DNA of 46,186 nt from positions 1 through 46,186 of the forward strand of contig BTUC01000005.1 of the NCBI GenBank assembly GCA_045863575.1, given 5' to 3'. The number at the start of each line of letters is the position of its first letter. The stretch's first letter is position 1. This document shows, one piece after another, positions 9,797 to 46,186 of this stretch. The DNA is from Phycisphaerae bacterium. Its GTDB lineage: Bacteria; Planctomycetota; Phycisphaerae; UBA1845; PWPN01. The notes under the pieces were generated by a model. That model ran no database searches. It was given only the letters and a program-made list of their open reading frames with translations, and was not told the origin of the DNA. The position numbers were made by a program, and so were the translations under genes.

Positions 9797-9838
9797 ACCG
9801 CCATCATTCGAGTCCTTTTCCGCTGATCGCGATCAGAC

Positions 9839-9945
9839 GTAGCGTCCGGCCTCCGTGCCGGACGTTCTGCGCTGTAGCCGTTCAGCAGACCAGGGCGACC
9901 GCAGGCGCTTGTGCTCCAACGTCCGGCACGGAGGCCGGACGCTAC
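9839..9945. repeat. REPIN of two inverted GTAG-type REPs (family A)
   Basis: Perfect 28 bp inverted repeat GTAGCGTCCGGCCTCCGTGCCGGACGTT / AACGTCCGGCACGGAGGCCGGACGCTAC between convergent genes. Confidence 0.85.
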
Positions 9946-10754
9946 CGGCTGCGGCGGTCATCAGCGGAGGGCGTAGCGGGGCGGGTTGCGGGCGTGGTTT
10001 TCTCGAACACGATCACGTGTTGCCGGGGGAGTGTGCGGAGCGTTTCCTGGTGCCGCAGCGGGTGCGGCCGCATCTCGCGGATGACCTGGGCTTCGCTCAT
10101 CTTGTGCAGACGCTTGATGGGGACAAGCGGATCCTCCAGCCGGAACTCCACCAGCACCACGCGTCCACCGGGCCGCAGGGCCTTCGCGATCTGTTGCATC
10201 ATCTCGTACGGAAAGGCGAACTCGTGATAGACGTCCACGAGCAGAGCCAGGTCCACCGAGGCGGGCTCGAGCCTGGGGTCATCTTCGCTGCCCAGCACCA
10301 GGTCGATGTTGGCCAGCTTCTCCCGCCTGGCCTTCTGATCGATGATTTCCAGCATTTCGGGCTGAATATCGACCGCTTTCACGCGTCCACTCGGGCCGAC
10401 GATCTTCGCCAGACGGGTGGTGTAGTAGCCGCTGCCCGCACCGATGTCGGCCACGATCATGCCCGGCCGCAGTTTTAAGGCGGTCATGAGCTTTCGGCCA
10501 TGCTCCTCCTCCTCTCGCTCCGGCCGGTCCAGCCAGGCGGCGCCGGCGTGGCCCATCACCTGGGCGATTTCGCGGCCCATGTAGAACTTGCCAATGCCGT
10601 CGGGATCGTGATGCGGCCACCAGCGGTAGCGTGGCCTGTCGTCCCTGGGGGACGAGGTTGTCGCCGGTGCGGAAGCGACCGGACGGTCGGCGCTTACGGC
10701 CGTAACGGTCATGGCGAGCCACGCCAGAATGCTCCATAGCGGTATCGGTCGCAT
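9942..10754 (-). CDS. Class I SAM-dependent methyltransferase with N-terminal signal-like peptide
   Basis: VADIGAGSGYY, AVDIQ, LLVDVYHEF, LRPGGRVVLVEF; start chosen at MRPIPLWSILAWL. Confidence 0.85.
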   Translation of the reverse strand: MRPIPLWSILAWLAMTVTAVSADRPVASAPATTSSPRDDRPRYRWWPHHDPDGIGKFYMGREIAQVMGHAGAAWLDRPEREEEEHGRKLMTALKLRPGMIVADIGAGSGYYTTRLAKIVGPSGRVKAVDIQPEMLEIIDQKARREKLANIDLVLGSEDDPRLEPASVDLALLVDVYHEFAFPYEMMQQIAKALRPGGRVVLVEFRLEDPLVPIKRLHKMSEAQVIREMRPHPLRHQETLRTLPRQHVIVFEKTTPATRPATPSADDRRSR

Positions 10755-39031: not shown

Positions 39032-40237
39032 ATGGCTCACTTTCTTATCATCGGCGCCGGACGCCAGGGAATCGCTTGCGGCTGGTTCCTCCTGAATCGT
39101 TTCCCGGAGGCGCGTGTCGCCTACGTGGACCTGGATCGGCAACGCCTGGAGGCCGCGCGGCGCATGGGCGTCGATGCGGACCGCATCATGACGCAGGCGC
39201 ACGATCTGGATTCCGCATCTACCGGCTTGGAGAGTCTTGTAGAGGATTGTGATTGCGTCGTTGCCTGTGTGCCGTTCTTCCACAACGAGGATCTGACTCG
39301 CCTGGCCATCCGGCACAGGCGGCACTTCTGCGATCTGGGCGGCAACATCGCCACCGTTCGCCGACAGCTCGCGCTTGGTCAGGCGGCGGAAGCGGCCGGC
39401 GTGACGGTCGTGCCCGACTGCGGCCTGGCCCCGGGTGCGGTCAACGTCCTGGCCGAGATGTGGCGCCATGACTGGCGGTATCGCTCGGTCAAAATCTTCT
39501 GCGGCGGGTTGCCTCAGCATCCGCGCGGGGTGCTGCGCTACCAGTCCACCTTCAGCATCCACGGACTGCTGAACGAATACCTCGACGACTGTCAGGTGTC
39601 GCGCGGGGGTCGCGTCGTCTCCATCGAGGGCCTGTCCGAACCGGAGACGGTGACGGGTCTGCTTTTGCCGGGCGAATTCGAAGCGTTCGCGACCAGTGGA
39701 GGGGCGTCATTGGCTCCCGAGATCTACGCGCCGGCCGGGATCGACTATGAGTACAAGACGCTTCGCTACCCCGGTCACCGCGACGTCATCAAGGCCATGG
39801 CCGAGATCGGGCTCCTGGACATCCGGACGGTGATGGTCCGCCCAGCGGCCACCGCCGACGCGTCCCGGGCTTCGCCAGCGGTGCCCATCGCCCCGAGAGA
39901 TCTGACGCTTTCCCTGCTCGAAGGAGCACTGCAAAGTGATCGCCGCGACCTCGTGGTCGCCTGTGTGCTGGTCGAAGGGGTCAAGGGCAGCCAACCGGTG
40001 CAAGGCCGGGTCGATTGGCTGGACTATCCGGATGCGCGTTTCACGGCCATGGAACGCACCACCGGTTTCAGTGCGGGCATCGCCGCGGCTTTCGTGGCCG
40101 GGCTTCTCCCTGAACAGGCGCCGCCCGGCGCATTCGCACCCTTTCAGATCCTGCCGCCGCACCGGCTTCTGGAAGAGCTCCGCCGCACGGGCACAAACCT
40201 CCAGGTCACGAGCTCCTGCACGCCGGCTGCGGATTAA
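39032..40237 (+). CDS. Saccharopine dehydrogenase / lysine 6-dehydrogenase family protein
   Basis: IIGAGRQG, HFCDLGGN, PDCGLAPG, CGGLPQHP, GLLNEY, EAFATSGG, YKTLRYPGH, TAMERTTGF. Confidence 0.88.
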   Translation: MAHFLIIGAGRQGIACGWFLLNRFPEARVAYVDLDRQRLEAARRMGVDADRIMTQAHDLDSASTGLESLVEDCDCVVACVPFFHNEDLTRLAIRHRRHFCDLGGNIATVRRQLALGQAAEAAGVTVVPDCGLAPGAVNVLAEMWRHDWRYRSVKIFCGGLPQHPRGVLRYQSTFSIHGLLNEYLDDCQVSRGGRVVSIEGLSEPETVTGLLLPGEFEAFATSGGASLAPEIYAPAGIDYEYKTLRYPGHRDVIKAMAEIGLLDIRTVMVRPAATADASRASPAVPIAPRDLTLSLLEGALQSDRRDLVVACVLVEGVKGSQPVQGRVDWLDYPDARFTAMERTTGFSAGIAAAFVAGLLPEQAPPGAFAPFQILPPHRLLEELRRTGTNLQVTSSCTPAAD

Positions 40238-40355
40238 AGCTCTGCCGCGATAACTCGTTTCCATGAAATGTCTTGTCCCAACCGGAAGCGTTCGATATCC
40301 TCACTGGGTGGCTGGAGCCATCGCCGAGGCAAACTGGGCAAGGATAGGTTTTTTC

Positions 40356-40985
40356 ATGGCACCCGACCCCCAACACGCAGTGCTGGCTGACGCAGCACGC
40401 ATGCAGCCGAACGAGCTCATCAGCGCGCCCGCCGAGATTCCGCTCGATCTGCCCGGACAATGGTATGTCGCCCACACGCGTTCTCGGAACGAGAAGATCC
40501 TGGCGAACGAGCTGACTCGCCTGCGGATCTTCAATTATCTTCCGCTCACGCAACGCACCACCCGAAGTGCCGTCACCCGGCGGCTCTCTCGAAGTACAGT
40601 GCCGGTGTTTCCAGGGTATCTGTTCTTCAATGGGAGCGAGGACGAGCGGTATCTTGCGCTGCGGACGAACCGGATCGCCCGCGTGCTGGAGGTCATCAAT
40701 CAGCAGGAGCTGATCGGTGAAATCCGGCGGATCCACGCGCTGCTCAGCAGCACCGACGAGTTCGATGTCTCCAACCGGCTGGCGGTGGGGGACTGGGGAC
40801 GGATCATCGCGGGTCCGCTACGGGGCCTGGAAGGGGTAGTGACCCGGACGGGGGGGCGGTGGCGCTTGAGCATGAATGTGACCATCCTCGGCCAGAGCGT
40901 CAATGTCGAGGTGGATTCCGAGAGTGTCGAGCCGGCCGAGCCGCCGGGCGAGACGGGAGTTGTGCACGCTCCGCCCGGACGTTAG
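40356..40985 (+). CDS. NusG paralogue (RfaH/UpxY/LoaP-like) transcription antiterminator
   Basis: NGN domain WYVAHTRSRNEK...PVFPGYLF; KOW domain GDWGRIIAGPLRGLEGVV; heads a polysaccharide gene cluster. Confidence 0.9.
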   Translation: MAPDPQHAVLADAARMQPNELISAPAEIPLDLPGQWYVAHTRSRNEKILANELTRLRIFNYLPLTQRTTRSAVTRRLSRSTVPVFPGYLFFNGSEDERYLALRTNRIARVLEVINQQELIGEIRRIHALLSSTDEFDVSNRLAVGDWGRIIAGPLRGLEGVVTRTGGRWRLSMNVTILGQSVNVEVDSESVEPAEPPGETGVVHAPPGR

Positions 40986-40993
40986 CGATGATC

Positions 40994-41251
40994 CCAGCAG
41001 GGTACGGGACCGGTTTCCCACCGGTGTACACGGGCTGACATTCGGTGTCGCATGGGAACGACGGGGGTAGGCACGTCGTATCGCCTGTGAACTCCCGCGT
41101 CTGTGAGGCCGGAGGCGGGCTACCGCCAGCACAGATGAACGTCGGCGAGGGGCCGATCGTACCAACCATCAAGCTGTGGCACTCCAGTAAGTTACATCAT
41201 CTCGAGTCGCCTGGGTTTCACGGAGGGGCGCTCGGTTGATTCTCTTGCTGG
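40994..41251 (+). ncRNA. Candidate structured cis-acting RNA (unassigned)
   Basis: About ten nested helices with a closing stem CCAGCAG/UUGCUGG and a possible pseudoknot; see findings. Confidence 0.55.
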
Positions 41252-41382
41252 CGTTTTGGACGGCCGATATTATTCGGGCGTCCCCTTCAGTAACGAAGGA
41301 ACGCCTCACCAGGAGCTGAACGCACTTGTCCGGCTCATAACGCCTGACGGGGACGGAGTTTGCGCAGAGCGAGGCGCTGGAT

Positions 41383-41448
41383 GTAGCCTCCGGCCTCCAT
41401 GCCGGACGTTCTGACCAGCAAACGGCCGACACGGAGATCGGCCGCTAC
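41383..41448. repeat. REPIN (family A)
   Basis: GTAGCCTCCGGCCTCCATGCCGGACGTT ... AACGGCCGACACGGAGATCGGCCGCTAC. Confidence 0.75.
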
Positions 41449-41521
41449 GGAATAGTCGCTCGGGTCGAGCCAATCACGCGATCGCGGGCCGAAAACACGG
41501 CTAACAAGGCTGAGACAGCAT

Positions 41522-42469
41522 ATGTCGCATGCGGTGGTTACCGGCGCGGCCGGTTTTATCGGGTCCCACGTATGTGAGGCCATGCTGGCCCGCGGCTGGC
41601 GGATCACCGGCGTGGATTCGTTCGATTCGTTCTACGACCCGCAGCGGAAACGCCGCAATGTGGCCGGTCTGGTTGGACAGGAGGGCTTCGCTCTGGTCGA
41701 GGCCGACATCCGCGACGCGACGGCCATGGACCGTGTGATCGGTGGGGGGGCGGACGCGATCGTGCACCTGGCGGCCCGGGCGGGGGTCCGGCCGTCCATC
41801 GAGAATCCGCTGCTGTACAACGACGTCAACGTACAGGGCACCGGCGTGCTGCTGGAAGCGGCGCGGAAGTTCAGCGTGCCCAAGTTCGTGTTCGCCAGCA
41901 GTTCCAGCGTCTACGGCAACAACCCCAAGGTGCCCTTCAGCGAAGACGACCGCGTGGATAACCCCATCTCCCCCTACGCCGCCACCAAGAAGGCCGGTGA
42001 GCTGATCTGCCACACGTACCACCATCTGTACGGCTTGAATGTGAGTTGCCTGCGGTTCTTCACCGTCTACGGTCCGCGCCAGCGCCCGGACCTGGCCATT
42101 CACAAGTTCGCGCGGCTGATCGAGGACGAGCGGCCCATTCCGTTCTTCGGCGACGGCAGCATGATGCGCGATCATACCTACATCGATGACATCGTGGCCG
42201 GCGTGGTCGCATCGGTCGAACAGTGTGGGGGGTATAAGATCTATAACCTGGGTAACTCCAGCCCGGTCTCGCTGGCCGACCTGGTGGCTGGCATCGAGGC
42301 AGCCCTGGGAAAGAAGGCGTTGATCGAGCGGCTGGGCACGCAGCCAGGCGACGTCGAGCGCACGTACGCGGATGTCAGCCGGGCCCGTGCAGAACTCGGT
42401 TATGAACCCCGGACCGACCTGAAGACGGGGCTGGCCCGCTTCGTCGCCTGGCTGCGCCAGGAAGGCTGA
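41522..42469 (+). CDS. NAD-dependent epimerase (UDP-glucuronate 4-epimerase-like)
   Basis: TGAAGFIG, HLAARAGVRPS, ASSSSVYG, YAATK, RFFTVYGPRQRPDLA. Confidence 0.92.
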   Translation: MSHAVVTGAAGFIGSHVCEAMLARGWRITGVDSFDSFYDPQRKRRNVAGLVGQEGFALVEADIRDATAMDRVIGGGADAIVHLAARAGVRPSIENPLLYNDVNVQGTGVLLEAARKFSVPKFVFASSSSVYGNNPKVPFSEDDRVDNPISPYAATKKAGELICHTYHHLYGLNVSCLRFFTVYGPRQRPDLAIHKFARLIEDERPIPFFGDGSMMRDHTYIDDIVAGVVASVEQCGGYKIYNLGNSSPVSLADLVAGIEAALGKKALIERLGTQPGDVERTYADVSRARAELGYEPRTDLKTGLARFVAWLRQEG

Positions 42470-42471
42470 CC

Positions 42472-42633
42472 GTGTGCCACTGCTGTGCTTGCCCCGCCGA
42501 AGCCTGTTTGCGCAGGCGGATCAGCAGTGCCGATTGAAATCGAATTTGACGTGTGCCACTGCTGTGTCAGCAGTGGTTGGATGTCAGGGACGCTCCTTTT
42601 GCTCCCGGCACTGTTCACAGAGCAGTGGCACAC
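42472..42633. repeat. Cluster of three GTGTGCCACTGCT-type REP-like elements (family C)
   Basis: GTGTGCCACTGCTGTG at 42472 and 42551; inverted copy CACTGTTCACAGAGCAGTGGCACAC at 42609-42633. Confidence 0.7.
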
Positions 42634-42656
42634 GGGGATGGCTGGCAGGCCCACAG

Positions 42657-42684
42657 AACGTCCGGCAGGGACGCCGGACGCTAC
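42657..42684 (-). repeat. Single REP (family A)
   Basis: AACGTCCGGCAGGGACGCCGGACGCTAC. Confidence 0.75.
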
Positions 42685-42730
42685 AACGGCCGGGATTGCC
42701 GAGTCGCTGGGCGGGTTGATCGAGGCGTGA

Positions 42731-43780
42731 ATGAGTGCGAATCCTTCCTCCAGTCGTCCGGGCGGTGCCGCGCGTAAGGCGCTGATCACCGGTATCACCG
42801 GCCAGGACGGCAGCTACCTGGCGGAACTGCTGCTGGAGAAGGGCTACGAAGTGCACGGCATCGTGCGGCGGTCAAGCTCGTTCAGCACCGACCGCATCGA
42901 GCACCTGTACAGCGATCCGCACCAGTCGGACGCGCGGCTGTTCCTGCACTATGGCGATCTGACCGACGGCGGGAGCCTGCGGCACGTGCTGTGGACGGTG
43001 GGGCCCGACGAGATCTACAACCTGGCGGCCCAGTCGCACGTCCGGGTCAGCTTCGACCAGCCGGAATTCACGGTGGACGTGGACGCGCTGGGCACCTTGC
43101 GGCTGCTGGACGCCGTCCGCGACACGCAGGTGCCGGCCCGCTTTTACCAGGCGTCCAGCAGCGAGATGTACGGCCAGGTGGTGGAGACGCCGCAGCGCGA
43201 GACGACGCCGTTTCACCCGCGCAGCCCGTATGCCTGCGCGAAGGTCTACAGCTACTGGCAGACCATCAACTACCGCGAAGCCTACGGCCTGTTCGCCTGC
43301 AACGGCATCCTTTTCAATCACGAGAGCCCGCGGCGCGGCGAGACCTTCGTGACCCGCAAGATCACGCGGGCGGCCACGCGGATCAAGCTGGGCCTGCAGG
43401 ACAAGCTCTACCTGGGCAACCTGGATGCCAAGCGCGACTGGGGTTACGCCGGAGATTTCGTCGAGGCCATGTGGCTCATGCTCCAGCAGGACACGCCGGA
43501 GGATTACGTCATCGCCACCGGCGAGACGCACTCCGTGCAGGAGTTCCTGGAGGCGGCGTTCGGGCTGCTGGGTCTCGACTGGCATCAACACGTGATGCAG
43601 GACGCGCGCTACCTCCGCCCGTCGGAGGTGGACTGTCTGCAGGGCGACCCCTCCAAGGCGGCGGCGCGGTTGGGGTGGAAGCCACGCGTGACCTTCAAGG
43701 AACTCGTGGCCATGATGGTGGCTGCGGACCTGAAACACGCCGAGTGCGAGAGAGTGCTGAAGGAAAGGCAGTTGGCCTGA
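42731..43780 (+). CDS. gmd: GDP-mannose 4,6-dehydratase
   Basis: [57 protein letters not shown]. Confidence 0.97.
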
Positions 43781-43835
43781 GGTCGGCCTCTTCGTAACTG
43801 GCGGATTTGGATCGGCTGCTGGTTCGGAACTGAGA

Positions 43836-45014
43836 ATGGATATGCTTGCGGTTGCTTACCGACCGCCCATGGAGTTCCTCAAGGAGCTCTGGCCGGTGGC
43901 CCTTGTATCTCTCGCCGTGGCGCTGGCGGCCACGCCGGTATGCCGGGCGCTGGCCCGCAGGTACCGGGTCGTGGACCGCCCCGACGACTTCCTGAAACCG
44001 CACAAGCGGCCCATTCCCTACCTGGGCGGCGTGGCCATCTGCGCCGGCTGGGCGGCGGGCATCCTGGTGGCCTTGGCCCTCGGCGTGCAGGTCCGGCCGG
44101 GAGTCCTGGCCGGCATTCTCATCGCCGGAGTGGCCATCATGATCGTTGGGCTGCTGGATGATCTGCGGGCCATGACCCCGAAGGTCAAGCTGGTTCTGAA
44201 TATCGCGGTGGGACTCTTTCTGCTGTGGGTGGGCATCGGCAGCAACTCGTTCCACATTTTTGTCCGGGCGTCGGTGGCCGCGGGGGATCCCACGCTGGAA
44301 TGGCTCGAACTGATGCTGTCCGTGCCGTTCACGCTCTTCATCATTGTCGGAGCGTGCAACGCGACCAACCTGATCGACGGCGTGGATGGCCTGTGCAGCG
44401 GCGTCCTGGGGATCATCTCACTGGGCTTCTTCGTCGTGGCCCTGCACATGGCGGGTTCCAGCGCGGGTCAGCCGCTCAGCAACGAGCGTCTGGTGCTTTC
44501 GCTGGCCATGCTCGGGGCGGCGGCGGGTTTCCTGCCCTACAACACGAACCCGGCATCCATCTTCATGGGTGATGCCGGGTCCATGCTGCTGGGCCTGAAT
44601 GCCGCCGTGCTGATCCTGCTGTTTGGTGAGCCGGGGTTCATCAAGTGGATGCTGTCGGCGGTCATCGTGTTCGGGCTGCCCATCTCGGACATGGCTTTGG
44701 CCATGATCCGCCGCTGGCGCAACGCCCAGCCGCTCATGCTGGGGGACCGCAGCCACTTTTACGACCAGTTGGTAGACCGCGGCTTCACGGTGCGCCAGGT
44801 GGTGGCCATCAGTTACGCGCTGACCATCGCCTTCGCGTCCATCGGCTGCGGCGCGGCCGTGTTCCTGCGGACCCGGCACGTCATTCTGGTGTTCCTGGGG
44901 GTGGTGGCCGCGGTGGTGCTGGCGATCGCCAAGTTCCACATGGTCGAACTGCTGCCGCCGGAGCAGAGACGCTACTCGGTGAATGTGCAGAGCCGGGTCA
45001 AGGAACACGCCTGA
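43836..45014 (+). CDS. MraY/WecA family undecaprenyl-phosphate HexNAc-1-phosphate transferase
   Basis: KPHKRPIPYLGG, GLLDD, NATNLIDGVDGL, IFMGDAGS, DRSHFYD. Confidence 0.9.
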   Translation: MDMLAVAYRPPMEFLKELWPVALVSLAVALAATPVCRALARRYRVVDRPDDFLKPHKRPIPYLGGVAICAGWAAGILVALALGVQVRPGVLAGILIAGVAIMIVGLLDDLRAMTPKVKLVLNIAVGLFLLWVGIGSNSFHIFVRASVAAGDPTLEWLELMLSVPFTLFIIVGACNATNLIDGVDGLCSGVLGIISLGFFVVALHMAGSSAGQPLSNERLVLSLAMLGAAAGFLPYNTNPASIFMGDAGSMLLGLNAAVLILLFGEPGFIKWMLSAVIVFGLPISDMALAMIRRWRNAQPLMLGDRSHFYDQLVDRGFTVRQVVAISYALTIAFASIGCGAAVFLRTRHVILVFLGVVAAVVLAIAKFHMVELLPPEQRRYSVNVQSRVKEHA

Positions 45015-45044
45015 AGGCGGTTATTACACAACCGGGAGTCTGTC

Positions 45045-46186
45045 ATGTCCGTACGATTGGCGATTCATCCCGTGCCCAGCAGCTTTTCAGATCGCTGGCT
45101 GGAGTATTGCCGCCAGCAGGGGATCGATCACTATACGGTCAATTGCTTTGATTGCGATATCGTCGAGCATCTGCGTCCCGCGGACGCGCTGATGTGGCAC
45201 ATCACACACGGTGTCTCACGGGACGTCATCCTGGGGGTCCATCTGGTCCGGGCTCTGGAGGCCATGGGCCTGATCGTGTTTCCCAGCTCTGCAACCTTCT
45301 GGCACTACGACGACAAACTGGCCCAGAAATACCTCTTGGAGGCGGTGGCAGCACCTCTGGTGCCGACGTACATCTTCTATGGCCTCCAGGAGGCGATGGA
45401 CTGGATCGATCAGGCGTCCTTTCCCAAGGTGTTTAAACTCCGGCGCGGAGCGGGTTCGCAGAACGTGAGGCTGGTTCGGACGGCCGATGAAGCGCGTGGC
45501 CTGGCTAAGCGATGCTTCGGTCAAGGTTTTAAACCTGTGGCCGGCATTCTGGCCGACGGCCTGGTGAAGCTGAAAAAGCACCGTCAGCGCGGCGATGTCG
45601 CCGCTGCGCTGAAGCGGTTGCCGGCGACTTTGAAGAACATCTACAACGCGAACCGCATGCTCCCGCGCGAGAAGAGCTATGCCCTGTTCCAGGAGTTTCT
45701 TCCGGGGAATACGTACGATACCCGAATCACGGTGATCGGCGACCGGGCATTCGGTTTCACGCGCAACGTGCGGAAGAATGACTTCCGGGCTTCCGGCAGT
45801 GGCAGCATCGATTATAACCTGAAGCGCGTGGGGCTGGACTGCGTCGAAATCGCCTTCGCCGTGGCCAGGCGTATCGGCTCGCAGAGCCTCTGCTTCGATT
45901 TCGTTCGCGACGCCAATGGCCGGGCGATGATCGTGGAGATCAGCTACATGTACCTGGCCGGCCCTGTCCACCAGTGCGCCGGCCACTGGGATGCCAGCCT
46001 GAACTTCCACGAGGGTCAGGTCTGGCCGCAAGACGCCATTCTGGACGACCTGCTGGACGAGTTGCCGGAAGCGACATGGCGGGCGGCATACGGCTTCCCC
46101 TGTATGTTTGCCGGCGGCAAGGTGTTCGGGCTGTACGACGGCGACTTCATCGTCCTGCGCTTCCGGCCTGAGCAAATCGAGACGCT
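45045..46186 (+). CDS. RimK-like ATP-grasp protein of polysaccharide clusters, running off the window with a TfoX-N-like extension
   Basis: Absent from ORF track (no stop). MSVRLAIH..SFSDRW; FWHYDDKLAQKYLLE; FPKVFKLRRGAGSQNV; FQEFLPGN.YD.R; DFRASGSG; EISY. Confidence 0.85.
   Translation, partial: MSVRLAIHPVPSSFSDRWLEYCRQQGIDHYTVNCFDCDIVEHLRPADALMWHITHGVSRDVILGVHLVRALEAMGLIVFPSSATFWHYDDKLAQKYLLEAVAAPLVPTYIFYGLQEAMDWIDQASFPKVFKLRRGAGSQNVRLVRTADEARGLAKRCFGQGFKPVAGILADGLVKLKKHRQRGDVAAALKRLPATLKNIYNANRMLPREKSYALFQEFLPGNTYDTRITVIGDRAFGFTRNVRKNDFRASGSGSIDYNLKRVGLDCVEIAFAVARRIGSQSLCFDFVRDANGRAMIVEISYMYLAGPVHQCAGHWDASLNFHEGQVWPQDAILDDLLDELPEATWRAAYGFPCMFAGGKVFGLYDGDFIVLRFRPEQIET

Follow-up and report, generated by a model that had tools for sequence, protein, structure and literature searches.

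A stretch of 46,186 nt from a Phycisphaerae bacterium (contig BTUC01000005.1 of assembly GCA_045863575.1), here called the window, carries a gene for a NusG-like specialised paralogue (NusG-SP) that is followed, after a spacer of 536 nt, by an epimerase gene at the head of a row of polysaccharide genes. An initial annotation of this DNA had placed a large multi-junction RNA in the spacer, at 40994-41251, and proposed that it works in antitermination together with the adjacent paralogue. Our analysis leads to a different picture: the spacer is best explained, with a probability that we put at roughly 0.6, by a mosaic region and an adjacent leader module made of a promoter-like element, a hairpin and an invariant box.

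The promoter-like boxes, the hairpin (P2) and the box are conserved between loci, and they are associated in the genomes with NusG-like genes and polysaccharide genes. What survives of the antitermination proposal is that a cis element tied to the paralogue does lie in the spacer; it sits, however, at 41245-41367 and has a different form. The comparison of loci supports a short hairpin plus an invariant box as the cis element of this spacer, which would place it nearer to ops, JUMPstart and opsX than to the EAR RNA. Its parts are given below; the leader hairpin P2 is distinct from a helix to which the initial annotation gave the same name.

41245-41273, + strand: sigma70-type promoter-like element, with the -35 hexamer TTGCTG at 41245-41250, a 17-nt spacer ending in CCGA, and the -10 hexamer TATTAT at 41268-41273
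41278-41304, + strand: leader hairpin 1, from the minimum free energy (MFE) fold of the window leader, situated where the operon transcript is predicted to begin
41328-41348, + strand: hairpin P2, from the covariance model R1; its 3' strand enters the first three bases of the box
41345-41359, + strand: invariant box TGACGGGGACGGAGT, a candidate ops/JUMPstart-like pause and loading site
41360-41367, + strand: semi-conserved extension of the box TTGCGCAG, which reads CTGCGC in many instances

The invariant box, hairpin P2 and the promoter-like element

The assembly to which the window belongs (as contig C5) measures 7.3 Mb, is 92% complete and consists of 665 contigs. The relatives that its proteins retrieved are metagenome-assembled genomes labelled Phycisphaerae or Planctomycetota. 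For NusG-like homologues and for the covariance model R1, which was built from 5 equal-length instances of hairpin and box, the comparison set comprised 41 genomes (the own genome and 40 relatives).

The word GGGACGG.GT was invariant in all 22 aligned loci, and in blastn the box alone, among the parts of the spacer outside the repeats, matched a relative (genome G004, query positions 356-391). Homologues of the NusG-like gene occupy 44 places in 29 of the 41 genomes, many relatives having 2-3. The box, with at most 2 mismatches, was present within 1 kb downstream and on the same strand at 20 of 33 distinct NusG-like loci. It lies 28-84 nt past the stop codon of distant paralogues, and 58-77 nt past that of paralogues 37-45% identical to the window protein. 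An R1 match was found no more than 1600 nt downstream at 16 of the 44 NusG-like places, accounting for 17 of the 47 R1 matches in the 41 genomes. Counted by genome, 27 had both a NusG-like gene and an R1 match, 2 had the gene alone, 1 had the match alone and 11 had neither.

We scanned the downstream open reading frames (ORFs) at ten R1 matches, nine of them away from NusG-like genes and one (L118) behind such a gene. The nine precede genes for UDP-GlcNAc 2-epimerase (three), NAD epimerase (two), GDP-mannose dehydratase (one), a family 2 glycosyltransferase (GT2), a methyltransferase and a heparinase II/III-like protein; the ORF downstream of L118 matched no family. A sense-strand ORF begins about 35-260 nt downstream of the box in 20 of 23 leader-type loci. 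The exceptions are L113, whose single downstream ORF overlaps a longer one on the minus strand, and two loci with no ORF of at least 60 aa, L124 and L134.

Searches beyond R1 relied on exact words. One- and two-mismatch patterns were too noisy in GC-rich coding DNA to count. Of 201 genomes of the order, 111 carried the exact 13-mer of the box, with 181 matches compared with 12 for the reversed control. Among twenty places with this 13-mer in five other families of the order, 12 were leader-like and 8 lay inside long open frames. The polysaccharide-type genes behind the 12 leader-like sites encode Wzx-type flippases (three), a UDP-GlcNAc 2-epimerase, a nucleotidyltransferase and a GT2; the rest comprise a 696-aa AAA_31 protein, two flavin oxidoreductases, a LuxR regulator followed by a NusG-like gene, and two genes of unassigned family. 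A NusG-like gene directly precedes 3 of the 12. Outside the order, a sample of the phylum gave 44 matches to the 13-mer compared with about 29 for the control. Ten of these loci were read: eight lie within long open frames or have no hairpin, and two of one family, L144 (genome G375) and L145 (G206), look genuine, with clear hairpin-plus-box leaders. The element is therefore not strictly confined to the order. R1 itself gave no match at E <= 0.001 in 151 genomes of the phylum, a result that is uninformative because the own genome fails the same cut.

Within the own genome, a profile of 45 foreign instances found two sites only, that of the window (E 2.5e-4) and C21:29358-29384 (E 7.5e-3), and both precede genes of polysaccharide type. 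The second site (L135:3359-3385) has a hairpin and a box 340 nt upstream of a nucleotidyltransferase/hexapeptide gene, with no NusG-like gene nearby; the gene that follows the nucleotidyltransferase has a weak match to Wzz (23.3 bits, below the Pfam cut-off of 25.5). Two further loci show unusual arrangements. About 95 bp with P2, the box and the first epimerase codons are duplicated in tandem in L042 (G022:C1:549830-549959), giving two identical R1 matches 95 nt apart. In L149 (G110:C1, box at oriented position 1878) the box is followed by a gene for a LuxR-type response regulator and then by a NusG-like gene.

In the window, R1 matched positions 41329-41362 with 24.9 bits. When the 47 matches were realigned they gave 44 distinct rows, in which 89% of the P2 cells were paired and 7 of the 8 pairs had changes on both sides; none of 500 shuffles reached these values, and sliding the partner strand by 1-3 columns reduced the pairing to 19-45%. 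The independent compensatory types included CCGA/UCGG, CUGA/UCAG and CCCA/UGGG, in addition to G.U pairs. Since the R1 alignment is fitted to the model, we added an alignment-free permutation test, in which the longest stem anchored at box position 3 was sought between the upstream 45 nt of each locus and either its own 3' strand or those of other loci. The mean stem length was 5.4 for own strands and 4.82 (sd 0.16) for permuted ones, and none of 1000 permutations reached the former value. By these comparisons the predicted hairpin P2 is kept by compensatory changes. We also tried an alternative stem enclosing the box, in which the P2 3' strand would pair with CTGCGC; it scored 4.11 compared with 4.26 for permuted loci, with 430 of 500 permutations as high, and was rejected.

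Upstream of P2, 16 of 42 R1 matches examined had the pattern TTGNNN, N17-18 ending in CGA, TANNNT at 67-73 nt from the box, and the promoter-like pair is visible in the aligned syntenic spacers as well. On this comparison of loci, 41245-41273 is a promoter-like element and a putative conserved promoter. The gap between the -10 element and the box varies little (67-73 nt) in these 16 leaders, that of the window among them, and the sequence in between is not conserved; the constancy suggests a constraint on the length or shape of the leader. Most of 22 leaders folded have a hairpin of unrelated sequence at the place of leader hairpin 1, and as a group the 22 leaders fold modestly better than shuffled sequences (mean z = -1.06, with 12 of 22 below -1). 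Pairing of the box with GTCCCC of hairpin 1 was seen by eye in the window only and not in other leaders, and was dropped.

Assembled RNA reads cover the region thinly. Contigs of RNA library X10 span 40403-41164 and 41274-41615 with nothing between them, and library X19 gave one contig, 41226-41398, that crosses the proposed start; the depth is 3-4 in both libraries, and DNA carry-over is possible.

The genes on either side of the spacer are as follows:

40263-40985, + strand: gene of the NusG-like specialised paralogue, taken as the longest ORF from the first ATG
41522-46184, + strand: polysaccharide gene row behind the leader, comprising the four ORFs below
41522-42469, + strand: NAD-dependent epimerase (Pfam 4.8e-61)
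42731-43780, + strand: GDP-mannose 4,6-dehydratase (Pfam 3.3e-146)
43836-45014, + strand: family 4 glycosyltransferase (Pfam 5.8e-34)
45045-46184, + strand: ORF without a Pfam family, running off the window

The two gene assignments of the initial annotation hold. Its NusG paralogue is borne out by a match of the protein to the Pfam NusG NGN domain (4.4e-9), the KOW domain being weak at 19.6 bits, and its polysaccharide operon by the Pfam matches of the epimerase, dehydratase and glycosyltransferase. An in-frame ATG at 40356 gives a 209-aa form of the NusG-like protein, which served as the search query; the stop codon is the TAG at 40983-40985. Among NCBIfam models the protein scored best against UpxY (76.9 bits), then LoaP (45.4), RfaH (43.3) and housekeeping NusG (31.3), and fell below every one of the curated cut-offs (100, 125, 144.5 and 135.7, respectively). 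Judged by these profile scores, it is a specialised NusG-type factor outside the named UpxY, LoaP and RfaH subfamilies. A search of the assembly for the housekeeping nusG with PF02357 and TIGR00922 matched only the window gene, and in an assembly of this completeness and contig number the housekeeping gene may be unassembled.

A candidate pause-and-load site and its alternatives

We consider there to be an even chance that the box together with P2 is a pause-and-load site for the NusG-like paralogue, analogous to ops/JUMPstart or opsX. In such a mechanism the sigma70-type promoter would start the polysaccharide operon transcript near 41280, and the leader, about 65 nt before the box, would carry the 5'-terminal hairpin and then P2, overlapped by the invariant box. 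The pause of RNA polymerase would fall at the end of the box or close to it, about 12 nt beyond the base of the nascent P2, and the NusG-like paralogue encoded just upstream would load on the paused polymerase at the box. So modified, the polymerase would run through the long polysaccharide operon and escape premature termination. We infer the transcription start, the pausing at the box, the binding of the paralogue and the reading of the box, whether as non-template DNA or as RNA, from the arrangement and conservation of the leaders.

On a wider view, whose odds we place a shade short of even, P2 and the box may together recruit the NusG paralogues of a whole Planctomycetota clade. One ops-like word would serve several paralogues per genome and label the polysaccharide regulon throughout the order and in at least one further family of the phylum; it would have evolved independently of the enterobacterial JUMPstart, and the constant 67-73-nt leader would form the pause-and-load module. 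The module is not in Rfam and would be new among leader-encoded recruitment sites of specialised NusG paralogues. Literature searches on NusG paralogues, RfaH or JUMPstart with Planctomycetota, and on the box 11-mer, returned no description of it (supplements not covered).

Several observations weigh against the module and this role for it. The box is missing within 1 kb at 13 of the 33 NusG-like loci, and some boxes lie far from any NusG-like gene. The same box stands behind several paralogues in one genome (for example G027), so that the box alone cannot give paralogue specificity. The hairpin of the window is a weak instance, scoring just 24.9 bits against R1 (E 0.005 genome-wide) and folding at -3.5 kcal/mol with 5 to 6 pairs and one C.U mismatch. 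The pair counts for P2 come from an R1-fitted alignment, and RNAalifold on plain MAFFT alignments recovers neither hairpin 1 nor P2; for the box region and for whole leaders it returned only 3-4 invariant pairs inside the box, without covariation. MAFFT right-aligned the sequences and left the P2 5' strands out of register, which is why R1 was built from sequences of equal length. A generic scan of 40200-41700 for sigma70 promoters and terminators called none of either; the promoter-like element escapes it because its -35 hexamer scores 3/6 (the -10 scores 5/6). By eye, about 7 of 12 box positions agree with the E. coli ops consensus, and the box is therefore no member of the enterobacterial ops family and at most an analogue. 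Finally, the related genomes are not independent, so all counts given here overstate significance.

Two other readings of the conserved leaders were considered. The first, which we hold to be unlikely, is that hairpin and box form a cis-regulatory RNA read by something else, for instance as a small riboswitch or through an RNA-binding protein or small RNA that binds there and co-regulates the polysaccharide regulon, and that the adjacency to NusG-like genes reflects shared operon neighbourhoods. The compensatory and G.U changes in P2, which argue for a structure at the RNA level, would fit such an RNA, as would the orientation of the box, which in all cases checked is that of the genes downstream. 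So would the 30 of 47 R1 matches that are not next to a NusG-like gene and the finding that one invariant box serves several paralogues. However, conservation is confined to a single-stranded 12-nt tail and does not extend to hairpin loops and junctions, unlike in known aptamers, and Rfam gave no match for the window or for six other loci, where nothing fell on the leader at E <= 1. The co-occurrence of gene and match by genome (27 with both, 2 and 1 with one alone, 11 with neither) also speaks against it, and a box lying 28-84 nt past the stop codon of distant paralogues is hard to explain by neighbourhood alone.

In the second reading a transcription factor of the polysaccharide regulon binds the box as double-stranded DNA; this operator, set at a fixed distance from the promoter, would serve as a roadblock or for activation. 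The fixed gap of 67-73 nt between -10 element and box in 16 leaders and the two tandem GACGGR hexamers in the box are what such an operator might show, but the box is not palindromic and its orientation is always that of the downstream gene. Moreover, covariation in the flanking stem that includes G.U pairs is meaningless for duplex DNA, and the spacing is not universal: in a second group of loci, by eye, about 35-45 nt separate the box from the nearest -10-like words upstream. We judge an operator of this kind quite improbable.

Read as a pause-and-load site, the module offers some practical openings. It is short, invariant and easily found, and it is tied to NusG-like genes and polysaccharide operons in more than 100 uncultured Phycisphaerae-type genomes. 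It is a candidate template for pause and loading assays, a marker for annotating polysaccharide regulons, and a natural case of one box serving several paralogues.

Repeat A and the non-conserved region 40994-41251

The region in which the large RNA had been proposed divides into two parts, and a second repeat lies between the box and the start codon of the epimerase gene:

40984-41075, no strand assigned: full-length copy of repeat A (96-nt consensus, similar to miniature inverted-repeat transposable elements (MITEs) and repetitive extragenic palindromic (REP) sequences), found with a hidden Markov model (HMM)
41076-41244, + strand: GC-rich spacer, unique and non-conserved by blastn against the own genome and 40 relatives, holding the P4 3' strand and P7 to P10 of the proposed RNA
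41379-41458, no strand assigned: copy of repeat B, a near-perfect palindrome of about 72 nt, found with nhmmer

Positions 40984-41075 are a dispersed palindromic repeat, short, non-coding and present in many copies on both strands. An HMM of repeat A built without the window copy matched them at model positions 3-94 of 96 (E = 4.9e-14). The own genome has repeat A at 67 distinct loci on both strands, 31 of them of at least 80 nt, and blastn found no copy in the 40 relatives. The consensus folds into a single long hairpin (-69 kcal/mol), and the ends match in an alignment of 23 copies. The end of the window copy overlaps the TAG stop codon of the NusG-like gene, and many other copies start with TAA or TAG in the alignment. 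Repeat A also coincides with the first of two places where blastn matches of the spacer to its own genome pile up (40991 to about 41075), the second being repeat B; 41076-41370 is unique within the genome. Contigs of DNA run X5 break at 41019-41072, within repeat A, and in the contigs of the runs no joint that skips a repeat was seen.

Repeat B is GC-rich, occurs at 221 distinct loci of the own genome (nhmmer), and has a consensus hairpin of -87 kcal/mol. There are four copies in the window, at 1134-1189, 9836-9947, 41379-41458 and 42652-42688, the last being a partial copy between the epimerase and GDP-mannose 4,6-dehydratase genes. Copies are present in the relatives G001, G016 and G028 as well.

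The twelve helices that the initial annotation listed for 40994-41251 can all be drawn at or near their positions on the + strand, beginning, as it said, 9 nt past the NusG-like stop codon and with G.U pairs in the five helices P1, P2, P4, P7 and P9, but they do not add up to a distinguishable structure. Drawn as one structure they give 67 standard pairs with one clash, T41157 being used in both P9 and P2. At -81.1 kcal/mol this structure falls 28 kcal/mol short of the MFE fold, with which it has P1 alone in common. The unconstrained MFE of -109.5 kcal/mol is itself no better than that of dinucleotide-shuffled controls (mean -101.6, sd 4.9, n=200; z = -1.63), 13 of which fold at least as well; for the minus strand, z was -0.81, with 38 of 200 shuffles equal or better. 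The 5' strands of P1 and P2, P3, the 5' strand of P4, the GACA/UGUC hairpin and part of P6 are supplied by the palindrome of repeat A. A suggested pseudoknot of the P3 loop, UUCCC (41015) with GGGAA (41054), exists as a complement and is merely the two arms of that palindrome.

The region is not kept at orthologous NusG-like loci either. Nine distinct syntenic loci have a NusG-like gene followed by an epimerase gene, with spacers of 147-563 nt, and these nine spacers share no part of 40994-41251; blastn of the spacer against the 40 relatives likewise gave no match inside it. Even a genome of the same genus, whose NusG-like protein is 71% identical to that of the window, has a spacer in which almost nothing aligns pairwise, bar a 10-nt word at about 41189-41198. 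The initial annotation had recognised no named Rfam family, in agreement with the covariance models of Rfam 15, which we take to include EAR and JUMPstart and which gave 0 matches at the gathering score in the whole window; at E <= 10, positions 40700-41700 gave two chance matches only (E 0.8 and 10), both on repeat B. No terminator-like site was found in 41076-41244. The proposed RNA also lies upstream of the conserved promoter-like element, and the 3' strand of its P1 is the -35 hexamer of that element.

With an energy at the level of shuffles, no conservation and a 5' third that is a dispersed repeat of mobile type, three outcomes that the initial annotation itself had named as refuting, the proposed RNA is not supported, and the 258 nt very probably are a mosaic of repeat A and lineage-specific GC-rich spacer rather than a functional RNA. 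That they are transcribed as a compact EAR- or put-like RNA that binds polymerase or the NusG paralogue and brings about processive antitermination is scarcely credible, even though every listed helix can be drawn, the + strand folds somewhat better than the minus strand and the region sits between the NusG-like gene and the polysaccharide operon. Long nested folds come cheap in GC-rich DNA, and palindromic mobile repeats readily yield "helices" and "pseudoknots".

Comparison with known systems

The known recruitment signals of specialised NusG paralogues are those of RfaH, LoaP and, since 2024, UpxY, and most other lineages are without a known mechanism. The two repeats belong to a different comparison: repeats A and B resemble REP sequences, bacterial interspersed mosaic elements (BIMEs) and MITEs in being short, non-coding, intergenic, near-perfect palindromes on both strands. 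Repeat A is restricted to the own genome among the 41 searched, and repeat B occurs in some relatives too.

What the EAR RNA of the Bacillus eps operon shares with our locus is the context only: processive antitermination and an exopolysaccharide operon. Conserved and structured, EAR lies inside its operon, whereas the fold proposed for 40994-41251 is non-conserved, at chance level and without an Rfam match. Bacillus LoaP comes closer, as a specialised NusG paralogue encoded beside its target operon, whose leader contains a needed RNA hairpin. There is no sequence likeness, however, the window protein scoring 45.4 bits where the LoaP cut-off is 125, and LoaP targets polyketide rather than polysaccharide operons. 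The KOW domain of LoaP binds RNA hairpins, according to PMC11685472.

The likeness to RfaH and its ops/JUMPstart element is one of layout. Both are short, invariant sense-strand elements in the 5' leader, upstream of many polysaccharide gene rows, and in both one type of element stands over several operons per genome and is tied to a specialised NusG paralogue. The box, like ops, is about 12 nt long, starts with GG and ends with GT; taking its last T as -1 puts G at -10 and -11, as in the consensus pause. The differences from RfaH are that the paralogue gene here usually adjoins a target while rfaH is a lone cistron, that a covarying RNA hairpin abuts the box here, and that the phylum is Planctomycetota; the window protein, at 43.3 bits, is also far from the RfaH cut-off of 144.5. 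PMC7819879 describes ops as a leader element of 12 nt that also acts as a pause signal, and it gives the mechanism of TaA as unknown.

Bacteroides UpxY is comparable in being a NusG paralogue encoded at a capsule or polysaccharide locus, and it is the best NCBIfam match of the window protein, although the score of 76.9 bits is below the cut-off of 100. Its signal, opsX, acts through a nascent RNA pause hairpin reaching to -9 to -14 together with recognition of non-template DNA, as set out in PMC11685472. A nascent hairpin that ends about 9-14 nt before the pause (PMC11685472) has its counterpart in P2, whose end is 12 nt from the last base of the box. Unlike the box, which is invariant across paralogues and genomes, opsX is locus-specific. 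The Bacteroides operon begins with upxY, and opsX lies upstream of that gene, whereas the box here is usually downstream of the NusG-like gene, behind a promoter-like element of its own. Locus L149 is the one exception: there the NusG-like gene is inside the row that the box leads, as upxY is in Bacteroides.

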